Below, one piece after another: positions 225 to 64,000 of a stretch of DNA of 64,000 nucleotides. The DNA lies in IMG/VR virus record IMGVR_UViG_3300045988_103228, positions 1-64,000 of that record. One strand, given 5' to 3'. The DNA is from a virus. Each line of letters starts with the position of its first letter. Position 1 is the stretch's first letter. The notes under the pieces are model-generated. The model saw only the letters and a list, made by a program, of their open reading frames with translations. It did not search any database and had not been told where the DNA came from. The translations under genes and the position numbers were made by a program.

Positions 225-1391
225 TTAGGAAACAATCTTATTAAACTGTTTGATTGCCTCTGCTTCGGTCTCTTCTTTTAAGATATGAGTATACACTTTC
301 AAGGTTATATCGGGCGACGAATGTCCCATAAGGTATTGAACCGATTTAACATCCATCTTGGCTTTGACAAGCCGTGTACAATATTCGTGGCGCATACTAT
401 GGGCAGTGACTTCAGGCAATGGTTCATCATGGCAACTATTATAGGCTTTGATTAGTCCTTCAAAAATTCTAACAAGGTTTTTATTCGTATAGGGCCTTCC
501 AGTTTTTGCTATAAACAAGAAGTCGGCTTGCCCATCTATTATTCTCTCTGCTTTTACAATCGGACGTTGTTTTACCGCTTCTTCAAAAGCAATGATGGCG
601 TCTTTAGATAATGGGATAGTCCTTATCCCACTTTCTGTTTTTGTAGGTGCTAAATACAGCCCGCCGCTCTTTCCATCGTACACCATCTGATGAGATATAG
701 TAACAGTGTTGTTATCAAAATCAAATGACTTTTTTGTTAGCCCGCATAATTCTCCTGCTCGAAGTCCTGTCTCGTGCAAAAGCATCACCATGCCAACATG
801 CCTTTTATATACTCGACTAGATTTCATGAACTTGATCAGATTTTGATACTGCTCTTCTGTTAATATTTCTTTTTCTTTTGAGTCGCATTTGACAACTGTA
901 TTTAATTTAAAAACGAATGGATTTCTAGGAATTATATTCTCATCAAACATTTCTTGAAATGCCGGTCTAGCTAAAGACATGACATCTCTGATTGTTGTAT
1001 AACAATATCCTTCGTTATCCAATTCTCGTGCAAATTGTTTTACATCGCGCACTAAAATATCAGTTGCATTCATTTCCCCAATTAGATGATTCTGAAAGAT
1101 TTTCAAAGTCTGCGATTTTGTTTTATAGCTGCTTGGCCTAATAGTGAGTTTTGTTTCTTCGAGATGTCTTTTTGCTAATTGGTACACTGTGATTTTTGAA
1201 GTAAACGTTGTACCCAAATTAAGTTTTTCTTGGATTTCAGCTTCTTTTTCTCTTAATTCTTTAAGTGAAGTGGCGTATATTATTGAGCGTTTTCCAAGTT
1301 TGTTTGTCCATCTATATTGGTATCTTCCATCCTTTCTCTGGCTCTCGCCGTCTTTTAAAACTTTGCCATTATTATCTTTACGTCTTATCAT
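225..1391 (-). CDS. int: Tyrosine-type site-specific integrase
   Basis: 388 aa. C-terminal box II HSMRHEYCTRLV...LMGHSSPDITLKVYTHI carries the R..H.xR..Y signature. Terminal position next to repeats. Confidence 0.85.
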   Translation of the reverse strand: MIRRKDNNGKVLKDGESQRKDGRYQYRWTNKLGKRSIIYATSLKELREKEAEIQEKLNLGTTFTSKITVYQLAKRHLEETKLTIRPSSYKTKSQTLKIFQNHLIGEMNATDILVRDVKQFARELDNEGYCYTTIRDVMSLARPAFQEMFDENIIPRNPFVFKLNTVVKCDSKEKEILTEEQYQNLIKFMKSSRVYKRHVGMVMLLHETGLRAGELCGLTKKSFDFDNNTVTISHQMVYDGKSGGLYLAPTKTESGIRTIPLSKDAIIAFEEAVKQRPIVKAERIIDGQADFLFIAKTGRPYTNKNLVRIFEGLIKAYNSCHDEPLPEVTAHSMRHEYCTRLVKAKMDVKSVQYLMGHSSPDITLKVYTHILKEETEAEAIKQFNKIVS

Positions 1392-5224: not shown

Positions 5225-5758
5225 TTACTGCTTTCCGGTAGAACCAAAACCGCCCGCTCCACGCTCAGTTTCGTCCAATTCGGAAACCTCTTCAAAATCA
5301 GCCTGCCAGAACGGAACAACTGCCATCTGCGCAATGCGGTCGCCATGAGTAATCATTTGAGGGATATTGGAATGATTATGTAGTGCTACGATATATTCTC
5401 CACGGTAATCCTGATCACAAATCCCTGTTTTATTCGCAGGTGCAAGCCCCTGTTTCGTTGCCATACCACTGCGAGCATAGATAGCGACATACCAACCTTC
5501 CGGCGGAGCCATCCGCAGCCCAGTGGATACCTTAACGGTTTCGCCCGGCTGAATCATGATGCAACGGTCACCATTCTTGTTTACCATCGTTGCGTCATCA
5601 AAACCGATATAGGCATACAGGTCTGCACAAGCAGCATTTTTAGAACCATAAGTCGGAAGATGAGCATCATCGTGTAGTTTATTGATTTTAATGTTTGGGC
5701 GATACGGCATTCGACTCATGCCATAGCCAAGATTAGTAGTTGCGTTTCCTAAATCCAT
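5225..5758 (-). CDS. dut: dUTP diphosphatase (trimeric dUTPase)
   Basis: C-terminal motif V RGAGGFGSTGK, plus RSGMA and GICDQDYRGE motifs. Start moved to the internal Met (MDLGNATT...) so the gene abuts the nrdG stop instead of overlapping it by 71 nt. Confidence 0.8.
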   Translation of the reverse strand: MDLGNATTNLGYGMSRMPYRPNIKINKLHDDAHLPTYGSKNAACADLYAYIGFDDATMVNKNGDRCIMIQPGETVKVSTGLRMAPPEGWYVAIYARSGMATKQGLAPANKTGICDQDYRGEYIVALHNHSNIPQMITHGDRIAQMAVVPFWQADFEEVSELDETERGAGGFGSTGKQ

Positions 5759-8903: not shown

Positions 8904-9107
8904 TTATTCTACTTCCTCGTAGGTTTCCTCAAAGATATCCGGCTTACATGGATAAATTTCTCCACTCGCGCCACGGATGATGTAATCACCATAGTTAGCG
9001 TGCATAACGCCTTCCAACGTTTCGATATCCGCATTGGTATCTGGAATATGAACAAATCCGCTACTAGACCCATGAAAAGTAACTGTTCCGTTTGTCACCT
9101 TATCCAT
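8904..9107 (-). CDS. Hypothetical protein
   Basis: 67-aa ORF. Confidence 0.35.
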   Translation of the reverse strand: MDKVTNGTVTFHGSSSGFVHIPDTNADIETLEGVMHANYGDYIIRGASGEIYPCKPDIFEETYEEVE

Positions 9108-9181
9108 AAACTAGTCAGGAATATAGTCAATTCCAAGCTGAAATGCTTCAATTACAACCGGTCTCTTACGATACTGTCCCA

Positions 9182-9376
9182 TTACTTTCGATTTCCTTTC
9201 AAGAATCCTTCAATCAAAATAAGCACCAGCCAAATGCCTGTCGCAACTTTGATATTAAAATTCAAACTGAATAGCTGATAAATAACCCAGATGAGTGCAG
9301 TGGAGATTGCCCACAACACAAAGTAGTTTGCTGCAAACACAAGGATTGCTCCTAGAATATTCTTAAATGAGTTCAA
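9182..9376 (-). CDS. Hypothetical small membrane protein (2 predicted TM helices)
   Basis: 64 aa, strongly hydrophobic. Confidence 0.4.
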   Translation of the reverse strand: MNSFKNILGAILVFAANYFVLWAISTALIWVIYQLFSLNFNIKVATGIWLVLILIEGFLKGNRK

Positions 9377-18450: not shown

Positions 18451-18723
18451 TCACAAATCAGCAAGCTGTGCAGGAGACCAGATATCTGGAATATCCCAAT
18501 CTTCTTCCGATTTCCCATTATAAATTCCGTAAAAATATCCTTCGGACGGTACATAGACAATTCGTTGCCAGCCATTCATGCCATGTGACACCTTTGGCTC
18601 AAAATCACGAGTCAAAATTCTACGTCCACCACTGCTATAAGCAGATGCCTTTGTAGGAACTTCGACACATTTGTTATCCAGAATCCGAAGAATGTGTTTA
18701 ATAGACTTCTTAGAAAGATTCAT
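18451..18723 (-). CDS. Hypothetical protein
   Basis: 90-aa ORF. Confidence 0.4.
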   Translation of the reverse strand: MNLSKKSIKHILRILDNKCVEVPTKASAYSSGGRRILTRDFEPKVSHGMNGWQRIVYVPSEGYFYGIYNGKSEEDWDIPDIWSPAQLADL

Positions 18724-19113: not shown

Positions 19114-20445
19114 TTAGCCGTAGCTCACTTCGTTCTTGTCGTTTCGGAACCGCACAAAGGTCGGGAACTGCAGGGACTCAACACCAGTTTTCTTATCACA
19201 GCTGACCTCTTTGTATTTACACTCAACAATCTTGCCAATGTATTCATCAGGATTCGCCCACACAGCAGCTCTCGTAGCGTCATCAAAACCAGATCCGATT
19301 CGAAGCTCATTGCCCTTATAGTCAACAACAAGAGCGCCCATCGTGTCTGCCAGACGGTTCTGGCCTTTTTCAATCGCGGTGATTCGCAGGTCAACAGTAT
19401 AAAAACGCTTGATTTTAAGACAACCATTGTGACGAGCCCGGCGGTAAGGAACGTCCGTGTTCAACATCAAACCTTCCCATCCAATTTCGACCGCATAATC
19501 GAGCCACTTAGAAATCACACTCTGGTCAGTACCTTCATAGACCATCGGCACAATCTCAATATTTTTAAGGTGCTTGTGAGCAATCTCTGCACGAAGGCAA
19601 TTCAACCATTCACGGCGCGTCCGATACGGAACCGTGCATTTACTGCGGTCGAACTCGACAACAGGGATGATATCAAAAATAACGAACTTGATGCCAGTCT
19701 TGTCCTTACTATCCGAGTTCAATAGGCCAGTGCCATAACGAAAAGCCTCTCCGTCTGACATTCCTTCTGGATTCTTATAGATCAGCTCACCATCAAACAC
19801 CCACGCATCTCGCCTTGAGGCGTCTCCATCGTATAGAGAAAGCAGGTCATTCTTTATATGGTCGAGCCCCTTAAACTTCTGTGCTTGCCGAGAGATGATT
19901 TCACCTCTATGCATGGTGCCCCTATTGCCATTTTCTTTCTGACTAAGGCTGAACCAAGTGCCCTTCTTTAGCTTGACCTTATCAATTGGGTATCCCTGCT
20001 GAACCTCCCAGACAGGAATAATCTCTTCACCGTACACCTTATTGATGGTAGCTGCCTCAACACCAATCGGCAGATTCTTGGTGAACAGTCGCTTCAGAAA
20101 TTCTTCGTATTCAGGATTCTTATGTAAATAATTCTGGATTGTTGCGATGGATGCGTCAGAACCTGTATTGTGACCAGCACCCATAATATAAAGGTATCCG
20201 CAACTGAGATACTGAATATCGATATCAGGCTTTGCCGTTACCTTCTTGTTGATCTTTGCGTCAGACAGACCAGTAACAATTGCCGGGTCGAGCAGGAATC
20301 GGAAAAACGCCATCAGTTCATCAGCTTCATCTCCAAAATCCTTACGTGCATCTAGCAAAATGCGGGTCTTGTCCGTCTTCTTCTTTGCTTTCTGCAATGC
20401 ATTAACCATTGCATCAAGCTTACCTATGAGTTCTTTATCTGTCAT
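19114..20445 (-). CDS. ATP-dependent DNA ligase
   Basis: 443 aa. Motif I KENGNR (KxNGxR variant), motif III VFDGELIY, motif IV EGLMLN, motif V CLKIKR. Confidence 0.8.
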   Translation of the reverse strand: MTDKELIGKLDAMVNALQKAKKKTDKTRILLDARKDFGDEADELMAFFRFLLDPAIVTGLSDAKINKKVTAKPDIDIQYLSCGYLYIMGAGHNTGSDASIATIQNYLHKNPEYEEFLKRLFTKNLPIGVEAATINKVYGEEIIPVWEVQQGYPIDKVKLKKGTWFSLSQKENGNRGTMHRGEIISRQAQKFKGLDHIKNDLLSLYDGDASRRDAWVFDGELIYKNPEGMSDGEAFRYGTGLLNSDSKDKTGIKFVIFDIIPVVEFDRSKCTVPYRTRREWLNCLRAEIAHKHLKNIEIVPMVYEGTDQSVISKWLDYAVEIGWEGLMLNTDVPYRRARHNGCLKIKRFYTVDLRITAIEKGQNRLADTMGALVVDYKGNELRIGSGFDDATRAAVWANPDEYIGKIVECKYKEVSCDKKTGVESLQFPTFVRFRNDKNEVSYG

Positions 20446-37083: not shown

Positions 37084-37189
37084 AAACTTTAAAAATGAGC
37101 AAAAAATAATAGACGTATTAACGTCATATTATTCATTCGCTTATAAAACAAAAGTTCTAGCGGGGTTTATGTATGCCCTTTCAGGCTGG

Positions 37190-37263
37190 TGGGACAGGAG
37201 AGATTTGAACTCCCGACCAAGCGGTTATGAGCCGCCAGCTCTGACCAACTGAGCTACTATCCC
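37190..37263 (-). tRNA. tRNA-Met(CAT): tRNA-Met/fMet (anticodon CAT)
   Basis: Hand-folded GGGATAG/CTGTCCC acceptor, D-arm GCTCAGTTGGTCAGAGC, anticodon loop CTCATAA, T-arm GGGAGTTCAAATCTCTC, CCA encoded. Confidence 0.7.
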
Positions 37264-37292
37264 ATGCAAACGCCGACTTTCATCGGCGTGAT

Positions 37293-37360
37293 GCCAGTGA
37301 AGGAATCGAACCTTATCTCTCGGTGTTTCCGAGCGCTTTTACCATTAAGCTATCCAGCCG
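37293..37360 (-). ncRNA. Degenerate tRNA-like element (possible pseudo-tRNA)
   Basis: Canonical D-arm TAGCTTAATGGTAAAAGC and T-arm AAGGTTCGATTCCTT. The anticodon arm CTCGG-AAACA-CCGAG has only a 5-nt loop, and the 5' and 3' acceptor strands do not pair. Confidence 0.3.
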
Positions 37361-37493
37361 TATACCTCAGAATTTAATTCTCACTATCCAAGCTATGTCG
37401 CGTTCCAATATGATCACTCTTGACAACCATGTCGTAACATATAGGTTTCTTTCGGCTCTGAGTAACCGGTGCAGCGTAAGGGGCTGCGTGTGG

Positions 37494-37566
37494 AGCGACT
37501 GACGGGGTATGATCCCGCAACATTCAGATTGGAAATCTGACGCTCTGCCAATTGAACTACAGTCGC
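37494..37566 (-). tRNA. tRNA-Gly(TCC): tRNA-Gly (anticodon TCC)
   Basis: Acceptor GCGACTG/CAGTCGC, anticodon arm TCAGA-TTTCCAA-TCTGA, unusual T-loop ATCATAC, CCA encoded. Confidence 0.6.
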
Positions 37567-37675
37567 ATAATCACCCAGCTTGCAAAGCACTACTGCACCA
37601 TCACTGGCGAGCTGGGAATAATAGTGGTAATCAAAGGAGATCAACAAACGGTACGCAACCATAAGTTGATAATGG

Positions 37676-37761
37676 TGGACACGACCCGATTTGAACGGGC
37701 ACACCGCTGTTAACGGCAAAAGAGCCTAAATCTTTCATGTCTGCGATTCCATCACGTGTCC
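37676..37761 (-). tRNA. tRNA-Leu(TAG): tRNA-Leu (anticodon TAG), class II
   Basis: Acceptor GGACACG/CGTGTCC, anticodon arm AAAGA-TTTAGGC-TCTTT, long variable arm, T-arm GCCCGTTCAAATCGGGT, CCA encoded. Confidence 0.6.
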
Positions 37762-37766
37762 ATAAA

Positions 37767-37856
37767 TTGAGGGTGTCGGGATCGAACCGACGATCGGCTA
37801 TAAAGCACGCTGTCTGGGTCAAAGCCAGATGCCATTTACCACTTGGTGAACCCTCA
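37767..37856 (-). tRNA. tRNA with anticodon TTG (nominally Gln) but a class-II-like 21-nt variable region; identity uncertain
   Basis: Perfect 7-bp acceptor TGAGGGT/ACCCTCA. Anticodon arm TCTGG-CTTTGAC-CCAGA. T-arm GTCGGTTCGATCCCGAC. Discriminator A, no encoded CCA. Confidence 0.45.
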
Positions 37857-37955
37857 TTATGTAACTTGGCTTGCTGCGTCCTACTGCTCCGTTTTTTTGG
37901 AGAGCCAAGAATAATAGGAAGGTATTCATGAAAAGCAAGTGGAATACTCCACTGG

Positions 37956-38026
37956 TCCAAAATGTCGAATTCGAATCGCTCTTCTGCGTCCCAAACGCAG
38001 CGTGCTGCCATTACACTACATTTTGG
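37956..38026 (-). tRNA. tRNA-Pro(TGG): tRNA-Pro (anticodon TGG)
   Basis: Anticodon arm CTGCG-TTTGGGA-CGCAG. 8-bp complementarity at the termini CCAAAATG/CATTTTGG. Weak T-stem around TTCGAAT. CCA encoded. Confidence 0.5.
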
Positions 38027-38032
38027 ATATGG

Positions 38033-38117
38033 TGCCGCAGGTGGGATTCAAACCCACGATCCGTGTTTCAGGCGTCCCGGTTTAAGCGGGAAATGTATGT
38101 CACTCCATCACTGCGGC
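38033..38117 (-). tRNA. tRNA-Leu(TAA): tRNA-Leu (anticodon TAA), class II
   Basis: Acceptor GCCGCAG/CTGCGGC, anticodon arm TCCCG-CTTAAAC-CGGGA, T-arm GTGGGTTTGAATCCCAC, CCA encoded. Confidence 0.65.
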
Positions 38118-38159
38118 ATATACAGAAGCTGTATAAAATACAGCTTCATTCTTTTGAAA

Positions 38160-38756
38160 TTATTCTTTGCTAGTATTGTTTATATCGGATCTTCTATAAG
38201 GCAGTCCATAGTATTTACACCACTTACGAATAGAAGTTCCTGTTACACCATACTTTTCTCCAACTTTAGAAAATGACATAACACGGATATCTTTTTCAAG
38301 CTGACTTCTTTCTGGCAACCCTTTAGATCTTCTGTATGGAAGACTATAAAGACATTCTTTGCATAGTGTCCCTTTTGTTCTTGGACTCAATTCTTTCCAA
38401 CATTTTGCGCAAGATTTTGTCTCGCGCTTTTTGCGTTCGTTCTTTCCTTTTTGTATTGTTTCTTTCTTCGGGAACTTGATTTCATTTTCAAGCATAAGTT
38501 CTCGTGCTTTTTCATACCAGCTTTTAGCTATGTAATTTATTCCCACTTTTCCTAACGCCTCACCAATAGACTTCGATGTTTTAAGCGCCTTTACAAACTC
38601 TTCATCGGATACAGCTCTATGTCTCTTAATATTTCTCCCGCAATAATTTTCTGTTTGTGAATGACAATTAGGACACAGTAGCTTGAGATTTGATAACTCA
38701 TTATTCAGCCTATCTCCATCAATATGATGAACTTCTAACGAAATTTCCTTTCCCAT
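38160..38756 (-). CDS. HNH homing endonuclease with a C-terminal HTH DNA-binding region
   Basis: 198 aa. N-terminal HNH motif LEVHHIDGDRLNN...NLKLLCPNCH. C-terminal HTH-like KVGEKYGVTGTSIRKWCKYYGL. Adjacent to the tRNA cluster, as with seg/HNH genes in T4-like tRNA regions. Confidence 0.75.
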   Translation of the reverse strand: MGKEISLEVHHIDGDRLNNELSNLKLLCPNCHSQTENYCGRNIKRHRAVSDEEFVKALKTSKSIGEALGKVGINYIAKSWYEKARELMLENEIKFPKKETIQKGKNERKKRETKSCAKCWKELSPRTKGTLCKECLYSLPYRRSKGLPERSQLEKDIRVMSFSKVGEKYGVTGTSIRKWCKYYGLPYRRSDINNTSKE

Positions 38757-38873
38757 CTATTCCTTGTTTCCACAGCATTCACATTTATGTTCTCTTATGA
38801 GTAAGAGCGATTCTCTTAACCCTTTGAATGGAACGCCCTGTTTAAATCTTGTCAAATCAATATTACCTTTATT

Positions 38874-39056
38874 CTAACCTTGTCCCGTAAAATAAGAAGT
38901 GTCAATATTATTTTCGTCTGCATATGTTTGGATTACATCCCTAGAGCTTCCTCCGAATTTGCTGTAACCAAGTTTCTCAGCCACAGTAGCCCAGTTGTTG
39001 CTCTCTTTAAAAATCTGCTCGATCTCTTCTTTTGAAAATTTTTCAATTCTTTTCAT
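38874..39056 (-). CDS. Small HTH-like protein (possible homing-endonuclease DNA-binding-domain remnant)
   Basis: 60 aa. SNNWATVAEKLGYSKFGGSSRDVI resembles NUMOD/HTH modules of homing endonucleases. Confidence 0.3.
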   Translation of the reverse strand: MKRIEKFSKEEIEQIFKESNNWATVAEKLGYSKFGGSSRDVIQTYADENNIDTSYFTGQG

Positions 39057-39090
39057 GAACTTGCCTCCAGTATTTAATAGGTGAATATTC

Positions 39091-39177
39091 GGACTCTGGT
39101 GCCCAAGGCGGTATTCGAAACCGCACGCGATATCTCACGCAAAGCTGTTTGGGAGCTTCATGTCTACCTCATTCCAT
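39091..39177 (-). tRNA. tRNA-Leu(CAA): tRNA-Leu (anticodon CAA), class II, with C at position 33
   Basis: Acceptor GCCCAAG/CTTGGGC. Anticodon arm AAGCT-CCCAAAC-AGCTT. Canonical T-arm GCGGTTTCGAATACCGC. CCA encoded. Lies inside the spurious plus-strand ORF 39081..39299. Confidence 0.55.
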
Positions 39178-39187
39178 CACTTGGGCA

Positions 39188-39236
39188 TATAATTGCCGGT
39201 CTTTCCCGGCTGTCAGCCCCGCGCAGGGCATTTTCG
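39188..39236 (-). terminator. Tandem hairpins downstream of the Pnkp-like gene (putative terminator or processing site ahead of the tRNA)
   Basis: gccggtctttcccggc and gccccgcgcagggc stem-loops, read on both strands. Confidence 0.3.
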
Positions 39237-39255: not shown

Positions 39256-41466
39256 TTATTCGTGCCGATTCTCATAGAATTCATTCCGTAACTGAATAAT
39301 ACCCTTCTTGCAAAAAGATTCCTGGTCTTTCTCTCGTTGCTCACGCATCCAACCATAGAACAGGTTATCCTCAGCAGTAAACAACTTTGCGGTATTTTCA
39401 TAATAGCCACGCTTTTGAACGCTCTGCATAACACTACGCAAAAACTTCCAGTGTTTGTAGTAAGGAAGCTTCAGCTTGAACATAAAGTTCGTGCTATCCA
39501 GAAGGACAAACCCTTCAATATGTTCAAAGCCATGATGCAGATAGTTCTCGTTCATGACTCCCTCGTACCAAGGATAGAATTCACTCCAGCTCTCAAAGAT
39601 TTTAACCTTCTCCTTAATCTGCAAATGACACTTTTCAGCAGCACGCTTCAGATCATCGTAATCCATCACACTGAAGTTCATATCATTCGCAACAATATCC
39701 AGCAAAACAATGTGCGGTTTCTTGTATTCGATGATATGAGCATCATTTACAGGATCAATCACCTCAAAAATGATGGAACCATTCTCTTTTGCAACTTCCT
39801 TCAGATTCTTACGGTCTTCATCAGAAGTCGTATCCATGAGAATCTTTCGGAACATATCTGCAAAAGGCCCTTCAGGAGTGGATTTACTTGCAATGAACAG
39901 ACCATCCTGTTCTGCATCATACGAGACAATGCCAAGAAATCCGTTTTCCTTCAGATATGCAGTCACCGGGAACTTCAAAGTGTTCTGTAGGTTTCCAATT
40001 CTCGTTTCATTCCGCTCATCGACCGCAAAGAACTTATCATAGCTTCGAGCTACAATCTTATTCGTCTTTGTGTTAATGAACAATCCCCTTGCTTTGGTAG
40101 AAACCTCATCCCAGTGCTTCTTATAAAATGCTTCACGAGAGAAGTTGAAAGAAGAAATATCTCCGAATCGCTTCTCAAACACATATTTGCTTTGACGCAT
40201 CTTACTGACAAGTTCTGCGTTATCGAACTCAGTTTTCATTTCAACGGTAGTTTCAGTCTTTGACTCCTCTTTTCGGAACACATCATTCTTTGTTTCTACA
40301 CATTTGATTGACTGACCGTGTTCAAGTTCCACGCAACGGAGATATCCACCAAACTCGATTTTTCCTTCGAGGTTGTAGCACCGATGCCCCATATCAATAG
40401 GAACATCCTGCACATTTCGATGACCGAATATCTGAATGTAGCTATCCGGCATCGATTTTTCCCAAGACTCAGCCACGGTTAGCATATCAGGATAGCGACC
40501 AACACCCTTTACCATCTGGTCAGTAGACACGAATGGTAGAAATTCAGGCAAATAACTCAAACCACCATGGCTAACGAAGTATCTTTTCTCGTCGTAATCA
40601 AAATAGGAGCACTGTCCTACTCTCGAATAAACCTTACGAGCCGTATTATGGTCAATCCCTGCTTTGAAAAGCTGCGGACGAGTGTAGTTTGCGAACTCCT
40701 CGCTCTGAACCGGTTCATCATGGCCCCACTTGTTCAGCCACCGTTCGTGATTTCCTTCAAGGAGAATTACATTCTTCCGATTATTGTCTACAACATCACA
40801 AAGGAACTTGAACATCTCTACATTCTCAATACCGCGATCCAGATAATCACCAACAAAAATGTACAGTTCATCATCCTTCAGGTCACCAAGGTACTCTTTC
40901 AAGCAACTGTAACATCCATGTACATCACCGATGATATGAATTTTGTTCCAGTTGTTAAAGTCCTGCGGAACATAGTTCAATTTCTCAAGGACATTTATAT
41001 CTGACGAAAGTACAGTCACACCAGACGGAATCTTCTGTGTAGCAAATCGCGCATACATCTTATCAATAGCAGCATCTGGAACTCGCTTCAGAGGAGCACG
41101 AAGCGCATTACGCCGTTTACACTCATCAATCGGCAAATCAGTCATGTCGATGATGTACATTCTGTATCTGTACTGCTTTGCAAGATTCTTATAGCGATTG
41201 ATTTCAACAGTTTTAGAGTTCGTTGCATCAATCACGGTAAATTCACCGTGAGACATCCGAACCTCCAACAGTTTAAAGAGCATATCCCAGACAACATCAT
41301 CGTTCTGGGGAGAGATTTCCATTGTGCCAGCCGGGGTTTCCTGACCACCCTGACACATAAGGCGAATCGTATCGGCACTAAGCGTATACTTTTCCAGATC
41401 ATGCTCTTTAATATAGGTGGACTTCCCGCATCCTGGTGCTCCACGGAAAAGAAGCAAAGTTCTCAT
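39256..41466 (-). CDS. Polynucleotide kinase-phosphatase-ligase (bacterial Pnkp-like RNA repair enzyme)
   Basis: 736 aa with three domains. N-terminal P-loop kinase GAPGCGKST. Central calcineurin-like phosphatase GDVHG, GDYLDRG, GNHE. C-terminal ~350-aa nucleotidyltransferase/ligase-like domain with STKARGLFIN. Confidence 0.7.
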   Translation of the reverse strand: MRTLLLFRGAPGCGKSTYIKEHDLEKYTLSADTIRLMCQGGQETPAGTMEISPQNDDVVWDMLFKLLEVRMSHGEFTVIDATNSKTVEINRYKNLAKQYRYRMYIIDMTDLPIDECKRRNALRAPLKRVPDAAIDKMYARFATQKIPSGVTVLSSDINVLEKLNYVPQDFNNWNKIHIIGDVHGCYSCLKEYLGDLKDDELYIFVGDYLDRGIENVEMFKFLCDVVDNNRKNVILLEGNHERWLNKWGHDEPVQSEEFANYTRPQLFKAGIDHNTARKVYSRVGQCSYFDYDEKRYFVSHGGLSYLPEFLPFVSTDQMVKGVGRYPDMLTVAESWEKSMPDSYIQIFGHRNVQDVPIDMGHRCYNLEGKIEFGGYLRCVELEHGQSIKCVETKNDVFRKEESKTETTVEMKTEFDNAELVSKMRQSKYVFEKRFGDISSFNFSREAFYKKHWDEVSTKARGLFINTKTNKIVARSYDKFFAVDERNETRIGNLQNTLKFPVTAYLKENGFLGIVSYDAEQDGLFIASKSTPEGPFADMFRKILMDTTSDEDRKNLKEVAKENGSIIFEVIDPVNDAHIIEYKKPHIVLLDIVANDMNFSVMDYDDLKRAAEKCHLQIKEKVKIFESWSEFYPWYEGVMNENYLHHGFEHIEGFVLLDSTNFMFKLKLPYYKHWKFLRSVMQSVQKRGYYENTAKLFTAEDNLFYGWMREQREKDQESFCKKGIIQLRNEFYENRHE

Positions 41467-42580: not shown

Positions 42581-43000
42581 TCAAGCAAATGCGGCAAAAT
42601 TCTGAAATTCCATAGTATGTTGTACGCCGCTCACGAACGCCGAGATCAAAAACGGTTCATCCTTGCATCTGGCCATTGCGATCATATTCATATGACGCTC
42701 AGACAAGACACCAAGCTTTTTGATAAACTGCCCTTTGTTAAGTGTGTCAGTCTCTTCACAGAGAACGATACTGTCAACCTCTAGGAAATCGCAATCTTCC
42801 TTTGAGAGCAGGACATGAACCGGAGAACGCTTGTATGTTCTGGAAGACAACGGATTCCCTTTGATTGTGGGACTGAAGAAGTTGCGCTTATTGTTACTCG
42901 TCACAACGAACGGTCGAATACCGCGCTGCTGATGACCTGTCGCATTGGATAGATCAACCAACCAAACCTCTCCGACCTTTGGGTCAATATTGTTGTCCAT
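42581..43000 (-). CDS. MazF/PemK-family endoribonuclease toxin-like protein
   Basis: 139 aa. GEVWLVDLSNATGHQQRGIRPFVVTS aligns to the MazF N-terminal motif (GDIVWVDFDPTVGHEQAGKRPAVVLS). Further similarity across the MazF fold. No MazE-like partner adjacent. Confidence 0.6.
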   Translation of the reverse strand: MDNNIDPKVGEVWLVDLSNATGHQQRGIRPFVVTSNNKRNFFSPTIKGNPLSSRTYKRSPVHVLLSKEDCDFLEVDSIVLCEETDTLNKGQFIKKLGVLSERHMNMIAMARCKDEPFLISAFVSGVQHTMEFQNFAAFA

Positions 43001-63992: not shown

Positions 63993-64000
63993 AGCCGAAT

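Follow-up and report, generated by a model that had tools for sequence, protein, structure and literature searches.

What keeps a series of tRNA genes in a phage genome when each of them departs from the standard cloverleaf in a different way? The question is raised by a tRNA array in the IMG/VR virus record IMGVR_UViG_3300045988_103228, of which we analyzed positions 1 to 64,000 as a single 64,000-nucleotide stretch (the window). A preliminary description of this DNA, made from its letters, had singled out four oddities between 37293 and 39177: a long-arm tRNA with a Gln anticodon (i), a tRNA-Leu(CAA) with C33 in place of U33 (ii), a tRNA-Pro(UGG) with eight complementary terminal base pairs (iii), and a tRNA-like element with a 5-nt anticodon loop (iv). 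That description gave no strand; every tRNA feature here is on the minus strand. The four structural oddities are real, and alleles of (i)–(iii) are found again, conserved, in contigs of related phages. Because of this recurrence, together with compensatory changes in (iii) and the persistence of the loop of (ii) over different stems, (i)–(iii) go beyond what chance would produce. There is good support, from sequence comparison, for regarding (i)–(iii) as tRNAs that are probably transcribed, processed, charged according to their anticodons, and used in translation. With a probability of about 60%, we read the array as a set of working replacement tRNAs that is diversifying under host defences directed at tRNA.

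ARAGORN finds seven tRNA genes in the array, and Rfam RF00005 finds six (44–67 bits) plus a weak eighth element. ARAGORN called (i), (ii), and (iii), but it made no call for (iv). The minimum-energy folds are cloverleaves, which supports the structures of the odd tRNAs. For comparison, we retrieved 110 IMG/VR contigs, largely from one human-gut data set and mostly 110–140 kb long, using as query the 736-aa protein encoded immediately upstream of the array (identity 90–100%); in these contigs, the array always comes next to that gene. The order of the slots, Leu-CAA, Leu-UAA, Pro-UGG, Gln-UUG, Leu-UAG, Gly-UCC, and Met-CAU, and the anticodons themselves are unchanged in every array-carrying locus of the phage family, while the slots are occupied by very different alleles from one locus to another. 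The window carries a haplotype block made up largely of non-canonical alleles (Leu-UAA of 88 nt, Pro of 74, Gln of 90, and Leu-UAG of 89).

The long-arm gene (i) is given an identical span, 37767–37856 on the minus strand (90 nt), by ARAGORN, which calls it tRNA-Gln(ttg), and by Rfam RF00005 (44.8 bits). Both programs bear out the perfect 7-bp acceptor, the anticodon loop, the ≈21-nt variable region, and the A73 that had been described. The acceptor begins with U1-A72, a first pair typical of bacterial tRNA-Gln, and the loop CUUUGAC has U33 and a purine at position 37. Where a class I tRNA would have a variable loop of 4–5 nt, (i) has a 21-nt region that forms a hairpin, its stem consisting of A-U, G.A, C-G, and G-C, a bulge, and then 3 bp closed by the loop UUAU. 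No CCA is encoded in (i); the other six array genes have it.

The origin of this gene becomes apparent from its slot. Across the family, (i) and canonical tRNA-Gln occupy one and the same slot in all array-carrying loci, which mostly hold ordinary tRNA-Gln genes of 71–77 nt. These ordinary alleles have in common with (i) the A73, the D-arm motif CCAAGYGGUAA, the loop CUUUGAC, the absent CCA, and the 5-nt gap to Leu-UAG, and U1-A72 is found in (i) and in most of the canonical alleles. In alignment, what sets (i) apart is a 16–17-nt insertion in the variable region. Its 5′ half is 58–71% identical to the Gln alleles versus 46–53% to the Leu, Tyr, and Ser tRNAs of the family. Since slot, body features, and 5′ half all match canonical tRNA-Gln alleles, there is good support for (i) being a true tRNA-Gln that appears to have gained a hairpin in its variable region. 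The preliminary description had seen in it a class II, Leu/Tyr-like architecture carrying a Gln anticodon. The long arm with a stem is indeed present; the anticodon, however, is not one of Leu, Ser, or Tyr, the body is not related to theirs, and sequence comparison and synteny rule out a derivation from Leu, Tyr, or Ser tRNAs.

Long-arm Gln alleles are present in 17 family contigs (90 nt in 12, 88 nt in three, and 87 nt in two) and in three further contigs: two are viral (82 and 66 kb), and the third was binned with a Ruminococcus genome. Three family alleles and the 66-kb contig agree in the base of the arm (A-U, G.purine, C-G, G-C) but vary at its tip, and a D-stem pair reads G10-C25 in the 90-nt allele versus A10-U25 in the 87-nt allele. 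A genome-wide pattern scan for long-arm tRNA-Gln returned one real tRNA in 120 among the matches listed. It had also been suggested that (i) might be a recoding tRNA, and this was not supported: for 20 CAA codons in 10 window genes, the aligned residue is Gln in 936 of 989 cases and Leu once, the residues being drawn from 69 sister loci that carry a normal tRNA-Gln. On these grounds we rejected a reassignment of CAA.

The Leu(CAA) gene with C33 (ii) is likewise genuine, although its described span (39091–39177) is 6–9 nt off the ARAGORN call, 39097–39186 on the minus strand, a 90-nt gene with CCA, a long D loop, and a 5-bp variable arm. The anticodon stem AAGCU/AGCUU encloses the loop CCCAAAC, which puts C instead of U at position 33, next to the bond (33/34) that is cut by PrrC-type anticodon nucleases. 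It is identified as a tRNA by ARAGORN, by its fold, which at minimum energy is a clean cloverleaf (z = −3.3), and by its conservation. The same loop, CCCAAAC, occurs in two Leu-CAA alleles of 90 and 85 nt, the other alleles of the slot having U33, and the stems around it differ at all five pairs (AAGCU/AGCUU versus GCGAG/CUCGC). A constant loop over a stem that has turned over completely points to selection for the loop, and (ii) is thus, with good support, a probable tRNA-Leu whose C33 loop is under purifying selection. The reverse of the long-arm Gln is also found among Leu tRNAs. The Leu-CAA slot of about 20 relatives (for example, locus L005, 6631–6709) holds 79-nt alleles with a short variable loop, and a 77-nt tRNA-Leu(UAA) with a short variable loop lies at 5425–5501 of the phage-like contig L273. 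These short-loop Leu tRNAs are class I-like and fold as clean cloverleaves.

The third oddity is tRNA-Pro(UGG) (iii), which ARAGORN places at 37953–38026 on the minus strand (74 nt with CCA) and Rfam one base over, at 37957–38025 (47.1 bits), with one T-stem pair deleted. The eight complementary terminal pairs and the weak T stem noted earlier are both upheld by these calls. In the ARAGORN register, the molecule has an 8-bp acceptor, a linker of U plus A/G before the D stem, a 4-bp D stem with a 7-nt loop, a 5-bp anticodon stem, a 4-nt variable loop, and a T stem made of an invariant G.A and three Watson-Crick pairs. It carries C1-G72, A73 followed by CCA, and the anticodon UGG; C1-G72 and A73 are the identity elements of Escherichia coli tRNA-Pro. 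The canonical 76-nt Pro alleles have these features as well.

Sister phages have 7/5 Pro alleles of 76 nt in this slot, and relative to them the 74-nt alleles are longer by one base on the 5′ side of the acceptor and shorter by one base in the variable loop and by one pair in the T stem. Pairing in the 8/4 structure amounts to 94.6% over eight distinct 74-nt alleles, compared with at most 48% when the partners are slid, and no shuffled or slid version reaches the 8/4 pairing of (iii). The acceptor is 100% paired in all eight alleles, and the fourth T-stem layer is always G.A. Eight pairs change on both sides, including acceptor pairs 2-69 and 7-64 and T-stem pairs 50-60 and 51-59; the eighth acceptor pair, G-C, is invariant and so is not itself proven by covariation. 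RNAfold prefers a 9/3 drawing of the same molecule. Taken together, these comparisons give good support for a tRNA-Pro in which one pair would have moved from the T stem to the acceptor, with the 12-layer helix kept.

Of the four elements, (iv) (37292–37358, minus strand) has a different standing. Rfam scores it at 30.1 bits against a threshold of 29. Its D and T arms are intact and its stem CUCGG/CCGAG encloses the 5-nt loop AAACA, as had been described, but the acceptor reported as unpaired can form five of seven pairs, two of them G.U. It thus has neither the 7-bp acceptor nor the 7-nt anticodon loop of a functional tRNA, and its folding energy is no better than that of shuffled sequence (z = +0.16). 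The 227-nt Gly-to-Met spacer that contains it is 94–99% identical in 40 loci, and among these (iv) shows one compensatory T-stem change while its acceptor positions vary without compensation. We rejected (iv) as a selected structure because the surrounding spacer is equally conserved and the conservation is not specific to it. With good support, (iv) is probably a dead tRNA remnant inside a conserved spacer. The earlier suggestion of degenerating genes accordingly applies to this relic and not to (i)–(iii), with their conserved alleles and their compensatory substitutions or conserved loop.

Other tRNA-like genes with 5-nt loops occur in the family. In 18 loci, a 74-nt gene that ARAGORN labels His(atg) lies between Leu-UAG and Gly (for example, L005, 7309–7382). 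Like the Gln genes, it has U1-A72, A73, and no CCA; its acceptor stem is full, its loop is UGAUGAA (G33), and RNAfold closes the anticodon arm to a 6-bp stem with a 5-nt loop, so that the gene is possibly non-decoding. At 19343–19417 of L162 there is a homologue of the family tRNA-Lys(UUU) that lacks 2 nt of the anticodon loop (CTCGA TTTAA TCGAG). With the last stem pair opened, the loop would read AUUUAAU and the anticodon UUA, which is ochre-reading; this gene is found in one contig only.

Although tRNA genes are normally the best-conserved DNA of a genome, six of the seven slots of this array are more divergent than the adjoining 736-aa gene and one spacer, and this with constant anticodons. 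We computed median pairwise identities from 400 random locus pairs. The medians are 64% for Leu-CAA (74% of pairs below 70%), 65% for Gly (55% below 70%), 68% for Leu-UAA (60% below 70%), 71% for Pro, and 72–73% for Gln and Leu-UAG. The corresponding value for the DNA of the adjoining gene is 84–91%, and that for the spacer at 37567–37672 is 83%, above both of its adjacent tRNA genes (65–73%). The tRNA-Met slot, at 95%, is the exception among the seven.

The adjoining gene (39256–41466, minus strand) offers a context for this pattern. Pfam recognizes in its 736-aa product a polynucleotide kinase (AAA_33, 4e-21), a calcineurin-type metallophosphatase (Metallophos, 1e-15), and a T4 Rnl1-type RNA ligase (RNA_lig_T4_1, 2.5e-38) fused in one chain; no Hen1 partner of the fused protein was seen. 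By its three domains, the protein would be a tRNA-repair-type enzyme, as kinase, phosphatase, and ligase activities are those by which phage T4 repairs host-cut tRNA. Phage tRNAs with altered anticodon loops have been predicted to be nuclease-insensitive (van den Berg et al. 2023, PMC10264068), and phage tRNAs rescue infection from tRNA-cleaving defences (Azam 2024, PMC11555353; Burman 2024, PMC11464382). In the mechanism that we propose, host defences that cut or disable tRNAs would select phage tRNAs that are no longer recognized, and the tRNA genes would thereby outpace their flanks. The altered anticodon loop, the extra arm, the 8/4 helix, and the swapped T-loop bases seen in some family tRNAs (described below) would serve as escape features, and the adjacent kinase-phosphatase-ligase may act as a second line of defence by repairing those tRNAs that are still cut. 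A link to anticodon nucleases is plausible, given the repair gene next to such divergent tRNA genes, and the context favours nuclease-resistant working tRNAs over decoys.

Several observations weigh against the defence reading. In the window genes, the array serves minor codons (CAA makes up 26% of Gln codons and CUA 7% of Leu codons), which fits the supply of rare tRNAs equally well, and the divergence of the alleles could stem from recombination with other phages instead of selection. The window copy of (i) has an A10.C25 mismatch in its D stem (G10 in most relatives) and folds just modestly better than shuffled sequence (z = −1.7), and Rfam RF00005 reports nothing for (ii) even at E ≤ 10 in a 171-nt search. 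The alternative that takes up the first of these points is tolerated drift, in which the odd tRNAs top up rare host tRNAs, their oddities are near-neutral, and the diversity reflects exchange among phages. We regard this as possible, though clearly the less probable explanation. It draws on the minor codons and on the arrangement of the alleles in mosaic blocks, which suggests recombination; moreover, when a tRNA is bound to a class I synthetase, its variable region points into the solvent, so an added arm could be harmless. Against drift, the odd features are themselves conserved, as seen in the C33 loop over different stems, the covarying 8/4 helix, and the kept base of the arm, and a divergence of six slots above that of the neighboring gene and a spacer is the reverse of what relaxed drift predicts. 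The mismatch in (i), the failure of Rfam to report (ii), and the weak T stem of (iii) could instead mark (i)–(iii) as broken copies in the course of being lost. That is the least probable of the explanations considered here, in view of the recurrence of these alleles, nearly unchanged, in many contigs, helices maintained by compensatory changes, and the lack of random indels or slot loss in the 66 loci that have all seven slots. Nor does any slot hold a second canonical copy with the same anticodon that would make the odd one dispensable, although Gly-UCC is doubled in some relatives.

A further explanation, in line with the earlier mention of decoys for anticodon nucleases and of regulatory RNAs, is that some or all of the odd genes act outside translation: as decoys that would soak up tRNA nucleases (or toxins that modify tRNAs), or as sources of regulatory fragments. 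Genes with a 5-nt loop, which could not decode, do recur, in the form of (iv), the His(atg) gene of 18 loci, and the Lys-like gene of L162, and irregular tRNAs that are charged but unused in translation have been reported (Mukai et al., PMC5389517). We nevertheless find this unlikely for the array: (i)–(iii) keep the 7-nt loop, A37, G18G19, the T loop, and the 12-layer acceptor/T helix, the strict conservation of the anticodon set over very different bodies suggests selection on decoding, and (iv) shows neither a maintained acceptor stem nor special stability. A last alternative concerns (i), whose long arm and A73 could make it a substrate of the leucyl-, tyrosyl-, or seryl-tRNA synthetase (LeuRS, TyrRS, or SerRS), with CAA and CAG misread. 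Both its class II-like architecture with discriminator A73 and the fact that the anticodon is not read by bacterial LeuRS and SerRS would allow such a switch. There is also precedent in the nev-tRNAs, in which Gly or Ile anticodons go with charging by Leu (PMC3333845, PMC4300185). Yet the body of (i) is of the Gln type and not of the Leu, Tyr, or Ser type, sister phages with near-identical proteins have an ordinary tRNA-Gln in that slot, and the CAA alignments given above yield Gln throughout but for a small remainder with a single Leu. In addition, the discriminator of (i) is not the G73 recognized by SerRS (PMC7609411), and an identity switch is accordingly very improbable. The reading of the array as working replacement tRNAs under defence pressure thus remains the one that we prefer.

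Recoding does, by contrast with the CAA codons of (i), appear to occur in this phage family at the stop codon TAG. Of the 71 open reading frames (ORFs) with 100 aa or more on the window's coding strand, 40 end in TAA, 31 in TGA, and none in TAG, and TAG is almost absent as a terminator in relatives, compared with 118 of 817 long ORFs (14%) in unrelated phages. Within the array, between Leu-CAA and Leu-UAA, lies an HNH homing-endonuclease gene (38160–39056, minus strand; Pfam HNH/HNH_3) with in-frame TAGs at 38876–38874 and 38759–38757, both on conserved Trp positions: the aligned residue is Trp in 87 of 120 database homologues at the former and in 111 of 120 at the latter. Both codons are kept in homologues that are 66–73% identical in DNA, without a frameshift or other stop, and the persistence of the frame and both TAGs over 27–34% DNA divergence led us to reject the gene as a pseudogene. 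A third TAG, present in some relatives only, corresponds to Trp in the window and to Tyr, Phe, or Trp elsewhere. In a small ORF at 8904–9209 (minus strand), the in-frame TAG at 9113–9111 is TGG (Trp) in three of three relatives, and a TAG site in a different endonuclease family (L066) aligns with Trp in 120 of 120. The few Gln residues belong to the nearest relatives, where code-15 translation of TAG is their probable source. With respect to code 15 itself (TAG=Gln), the avoidance of TAG as a terminator and the presence of a CUA tRNA agree with it, but the aligned residues do not, and we rejected TAG=Gln as the best fit for this reason.

The tRNA that would read TAG is encoded elsewhere. Neither ARAGORN nor Rfam finds a CUA-anticodon tRNA inside the window, and a hairpin scan of the window for NN-CTA-NN loops gave scattered matches at chance level only. 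In related contigs, a second tRNA array in the left half of the genome, outside the window, holds such a tRNA, an amber suppressor at 19164–19239 in L163, L164, and L165 and at 19122–19197 in L169. A diverged copy, missed by ARAGORN and with the T loop CUCGAAA, lies at 19423–19497 of L162, a contig that carries both this copy and the TAG-containing HNH gene. The suppressor aligns with the tRNA-Trp(CCA) of that array in the more distant relatives L172 and L173, with which it has the acceptor stem and G73 in common (loops CUCUAAA versus CUCCAAA). Because TAG falls on conserved Trp sites and relatives encode a tRNA-Trp-like CUA suppressor, the data suggest that TAG is read as Trp in this phage family. 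Recoding in this family would thus run through a suppressor outside the window and not through tRNA (i). One caveat comes from E. coli, where the amber suppressor derived from tRNA-Trp mostly receives Gln.

In the genome parts seen, TAG is sparse and is found mainly in homing-endonuclease genes. At least three homing-endonuclease families are inserted in the tRNA array at different slots (L058, 8894–9646; L066, 8429–9130; L034, 8736–9746), each with an in-frame TAG at a Trp site, as if TAG gated their expression. A 14-tRNA phage-like array in the contig L273 (CALGTV010000065.1, binned as Ruminococcus sp.) combines a long-arm Gln, a short-arm Leu, and a CUA suppressor, the last having a Gln-like body (U1-A72, A73) and a Trp-like anticodon arm.

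The remaining array features, all on the minus strand, are more conventional. A promoter-like site, CTGACA-16-AATTAT (39189–39216), was found upstream of Leu-CAA by a consensus scan and is a pattern match only. Downstream of the HNH gene follow tRNA-Leu(UAA) (38030–38117; class II, canonical; ARAGORN, Rfam 47.0 bits) and tRNA-Pro, with a terminator-like site directly after it (37953–37938; terminator scan). The spacer at 37857–37952 contains a terminator-like hairpin, the motif CTATTATTC, and a GCAGTAG hairpin and is 87–100% identical in 25 loci. Beyond tRNA-Gln and 5 nt downstream of it lies tRNA-Leu(UAG) (37673–37761; class II; ARAGORN, Rfam 44.1 bits), then the spacer at 37567–37672, found in 89 loci, and tRNA-Gly(UCC) (37491–37566; ARAGORN, Rfam 61 bits). 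The canonical tRNA-Met(CAU) (37187–37263; ARAGORN, Rfam 66.7 bits) is the last array gene and is followed by a terminator-like hairpin (37125–37112; terminator scan). The motif CTATTATTC, followed by a hairpin containing GCAGTAG, is present in both spacers, 37567–37672 and 37857–37952; this shared element could comprise a promoter and a leader or processing signal; alternatively, it could be an arm for recombination by which tRNA cassettes are swapped. Upstream of the repair gene, with a recombinase-like ORF in between, is a gene for a MazF/PemK-like endoribonuclease toxin (42581–43000, minus strand; Pfam 4.5e-19).

The array-bearing human-gut phage is roughly 125–140 kb in size. An integrase gene (225–1391, minus strand) lies near the window end, and in 27 of 28 related contigs (L093–L120) it is at most about 300 bp from the contig end; the window thus corresponds to the rightmost ≈64 kb of the genome, and the phage is probably either temperate or an excised provirus. 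The remainder of the window is a replication module with a DnaE-like polymerase, helicases, a primase, RecJ, a ligase, and NrdD, and no tRNAs were found in the 10 kb past window position 64,000. Megablast of the array against GenBank phages gave just three short tRNA-Met matches and no close relative. Since the nearest cultured phages by DNA polymerase are Firmicutes phages at no more than 35% identity, we rejected membership in the phAss-1 group despite the similar size. The host is probably a Firmicute; scans aimed at it, with the repair protein against 185,579 species genomes and by an exact-protein look-up of a window-edge gene, returned zero matches.

Departures from the usual tRNA build are not confined to (i)–(iii). 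An 88-nt tRNA-Thr(UGU) with a long variable region is found at 18662–18749 of L162 and in relatives, and tRNA-Met(CAU) alleles with a long variable region occur in L001 (81 nt) and in L002 (92 nt). A CUUUAU-type loop is common to the arms of the Thr and Gln tRNAs. The T loop reads AUCAUAC or AUCAUGA instead of UUCRANN in several Pro and Leu alleles of relatives and in the window tRNA-Gly (37491–37566, AUCAUAC), and in these tRNAs the usual U54-A58 pair appears swapped to A54-U58. Such class swaps, in which Gln, Thr, and Met gain an arm, Leu loses its arm, Pro becomes 8/4, and positions 54 and 58 are exchanged, would leave the tRNAs usable by synthetases and the ribosome. We tentatively entertain, as a proposal somewhat less likely than not, that the lineage runs a partly private translation, with TAG=Trp gating homing endonucleases and tRNA class swaps evading host defences.

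The architecture of tRNA is among the most conserved features in biology, and the split into classes I and II is usually taken as fixed for each bacterial amino acid. A single phage lineage here provides natural, conserved exceptions in both directions, with armed Gln, Thr, and Met, armless Leu, 8/4 Pro, and C33 Leu. The canonical versions in the same slots of sister phages allow a natural test of how much deviation synthetases, RNase P, EF-Tu, and the ribosome will accept, and the odd tRNAs may offer orthogonal scaffolds to those who engineer the genetic code. Should the arms-race reading be true, the set would display the tRNA features that host antiviral nucleases recognize, and the matched allele pairs make the idea of defence escape by phage tRNAs directly testable. 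If TAG=Trp is true, it would be a new stop-codon reassignment in phages and would affect the annotation of such genomes.

Overall, the set appears as a variant of known phage tRNA arrays, 8/4 tRNAs, and nuclease-evading loop variants; we found no description of class I tRNAs that carry an extra arm or of Leu tRNAs that lack one. Like recoded gut phages (Borges et al., 10.1101/2021.08.26.457843; Peters, PMC9523058; phAss-1, PMC10607447), this family avoids TAG as a stop, encodes a CUA suppressor, and concentrates in-frame stops in particular genes, and an intron endonuclease of Agate phages encodes Trp preferentially by TGA (10.1101/2021.08.26.457843; PMC9523058; PMC10607447). Unlike code 15 (TAG=Gln) and code 4 (TGA=Trp) phages, however, its TAG aligns with Trp and its suppressor resembles tRNA-Trp; Borges et al. 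(10.1101/2021.08.26.457843) saw only TAG to Gln and TGA to Trp, and we found no phage report of TAG=Trp in the literature searched. Like the nematode nev-tRNAs, which have Leu-type bodies (PMC3333845, PMC4300185), (i) joins a long variable arm to an anticodon not of Leu, Ser, or Tyr, but its body is of the Gln type, it sits in a tRNA-Gln slot, and it gives no sign of an altered reading of CAA. The 8/4 tRNAs found in phage tRNA clusters function in E. coli translation (Mukai et al. 2017, PMC5389517), and (iii) resembles them in a 12-layer acceptor/T helix split 8 + 4 instead of 7 + 5. That work covers Ser, His, Cys, and Sec without mention of Pro; (iii) further differs in the invariant G.A of its fourth T-stem layer and, from the allo-tRNAs of the same study, in lacking a long arm, a long D stem, and a 6-bp anticodon stem. 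The repair protein has the same AAA_33 kinase, calcineurin-like phosphatase, and Rnl1-family ligase domains as T4 Pnkp plus Rnl1 and bacterial Pnkp, although the three are fused in one 736-aa protein whose activity is predicted. As in the defence-related systems (PMC10264068, PMC11555353, PMC11464382), an array with altered anticodon loops (C33) stands alongside a T4-like repair enzyme. The array goes beyond loop mutations of the PMC10264068 type, adding an extra arm, an 8/4 helix, and, in relatives, the loss of the arm from Leu tRNAs.

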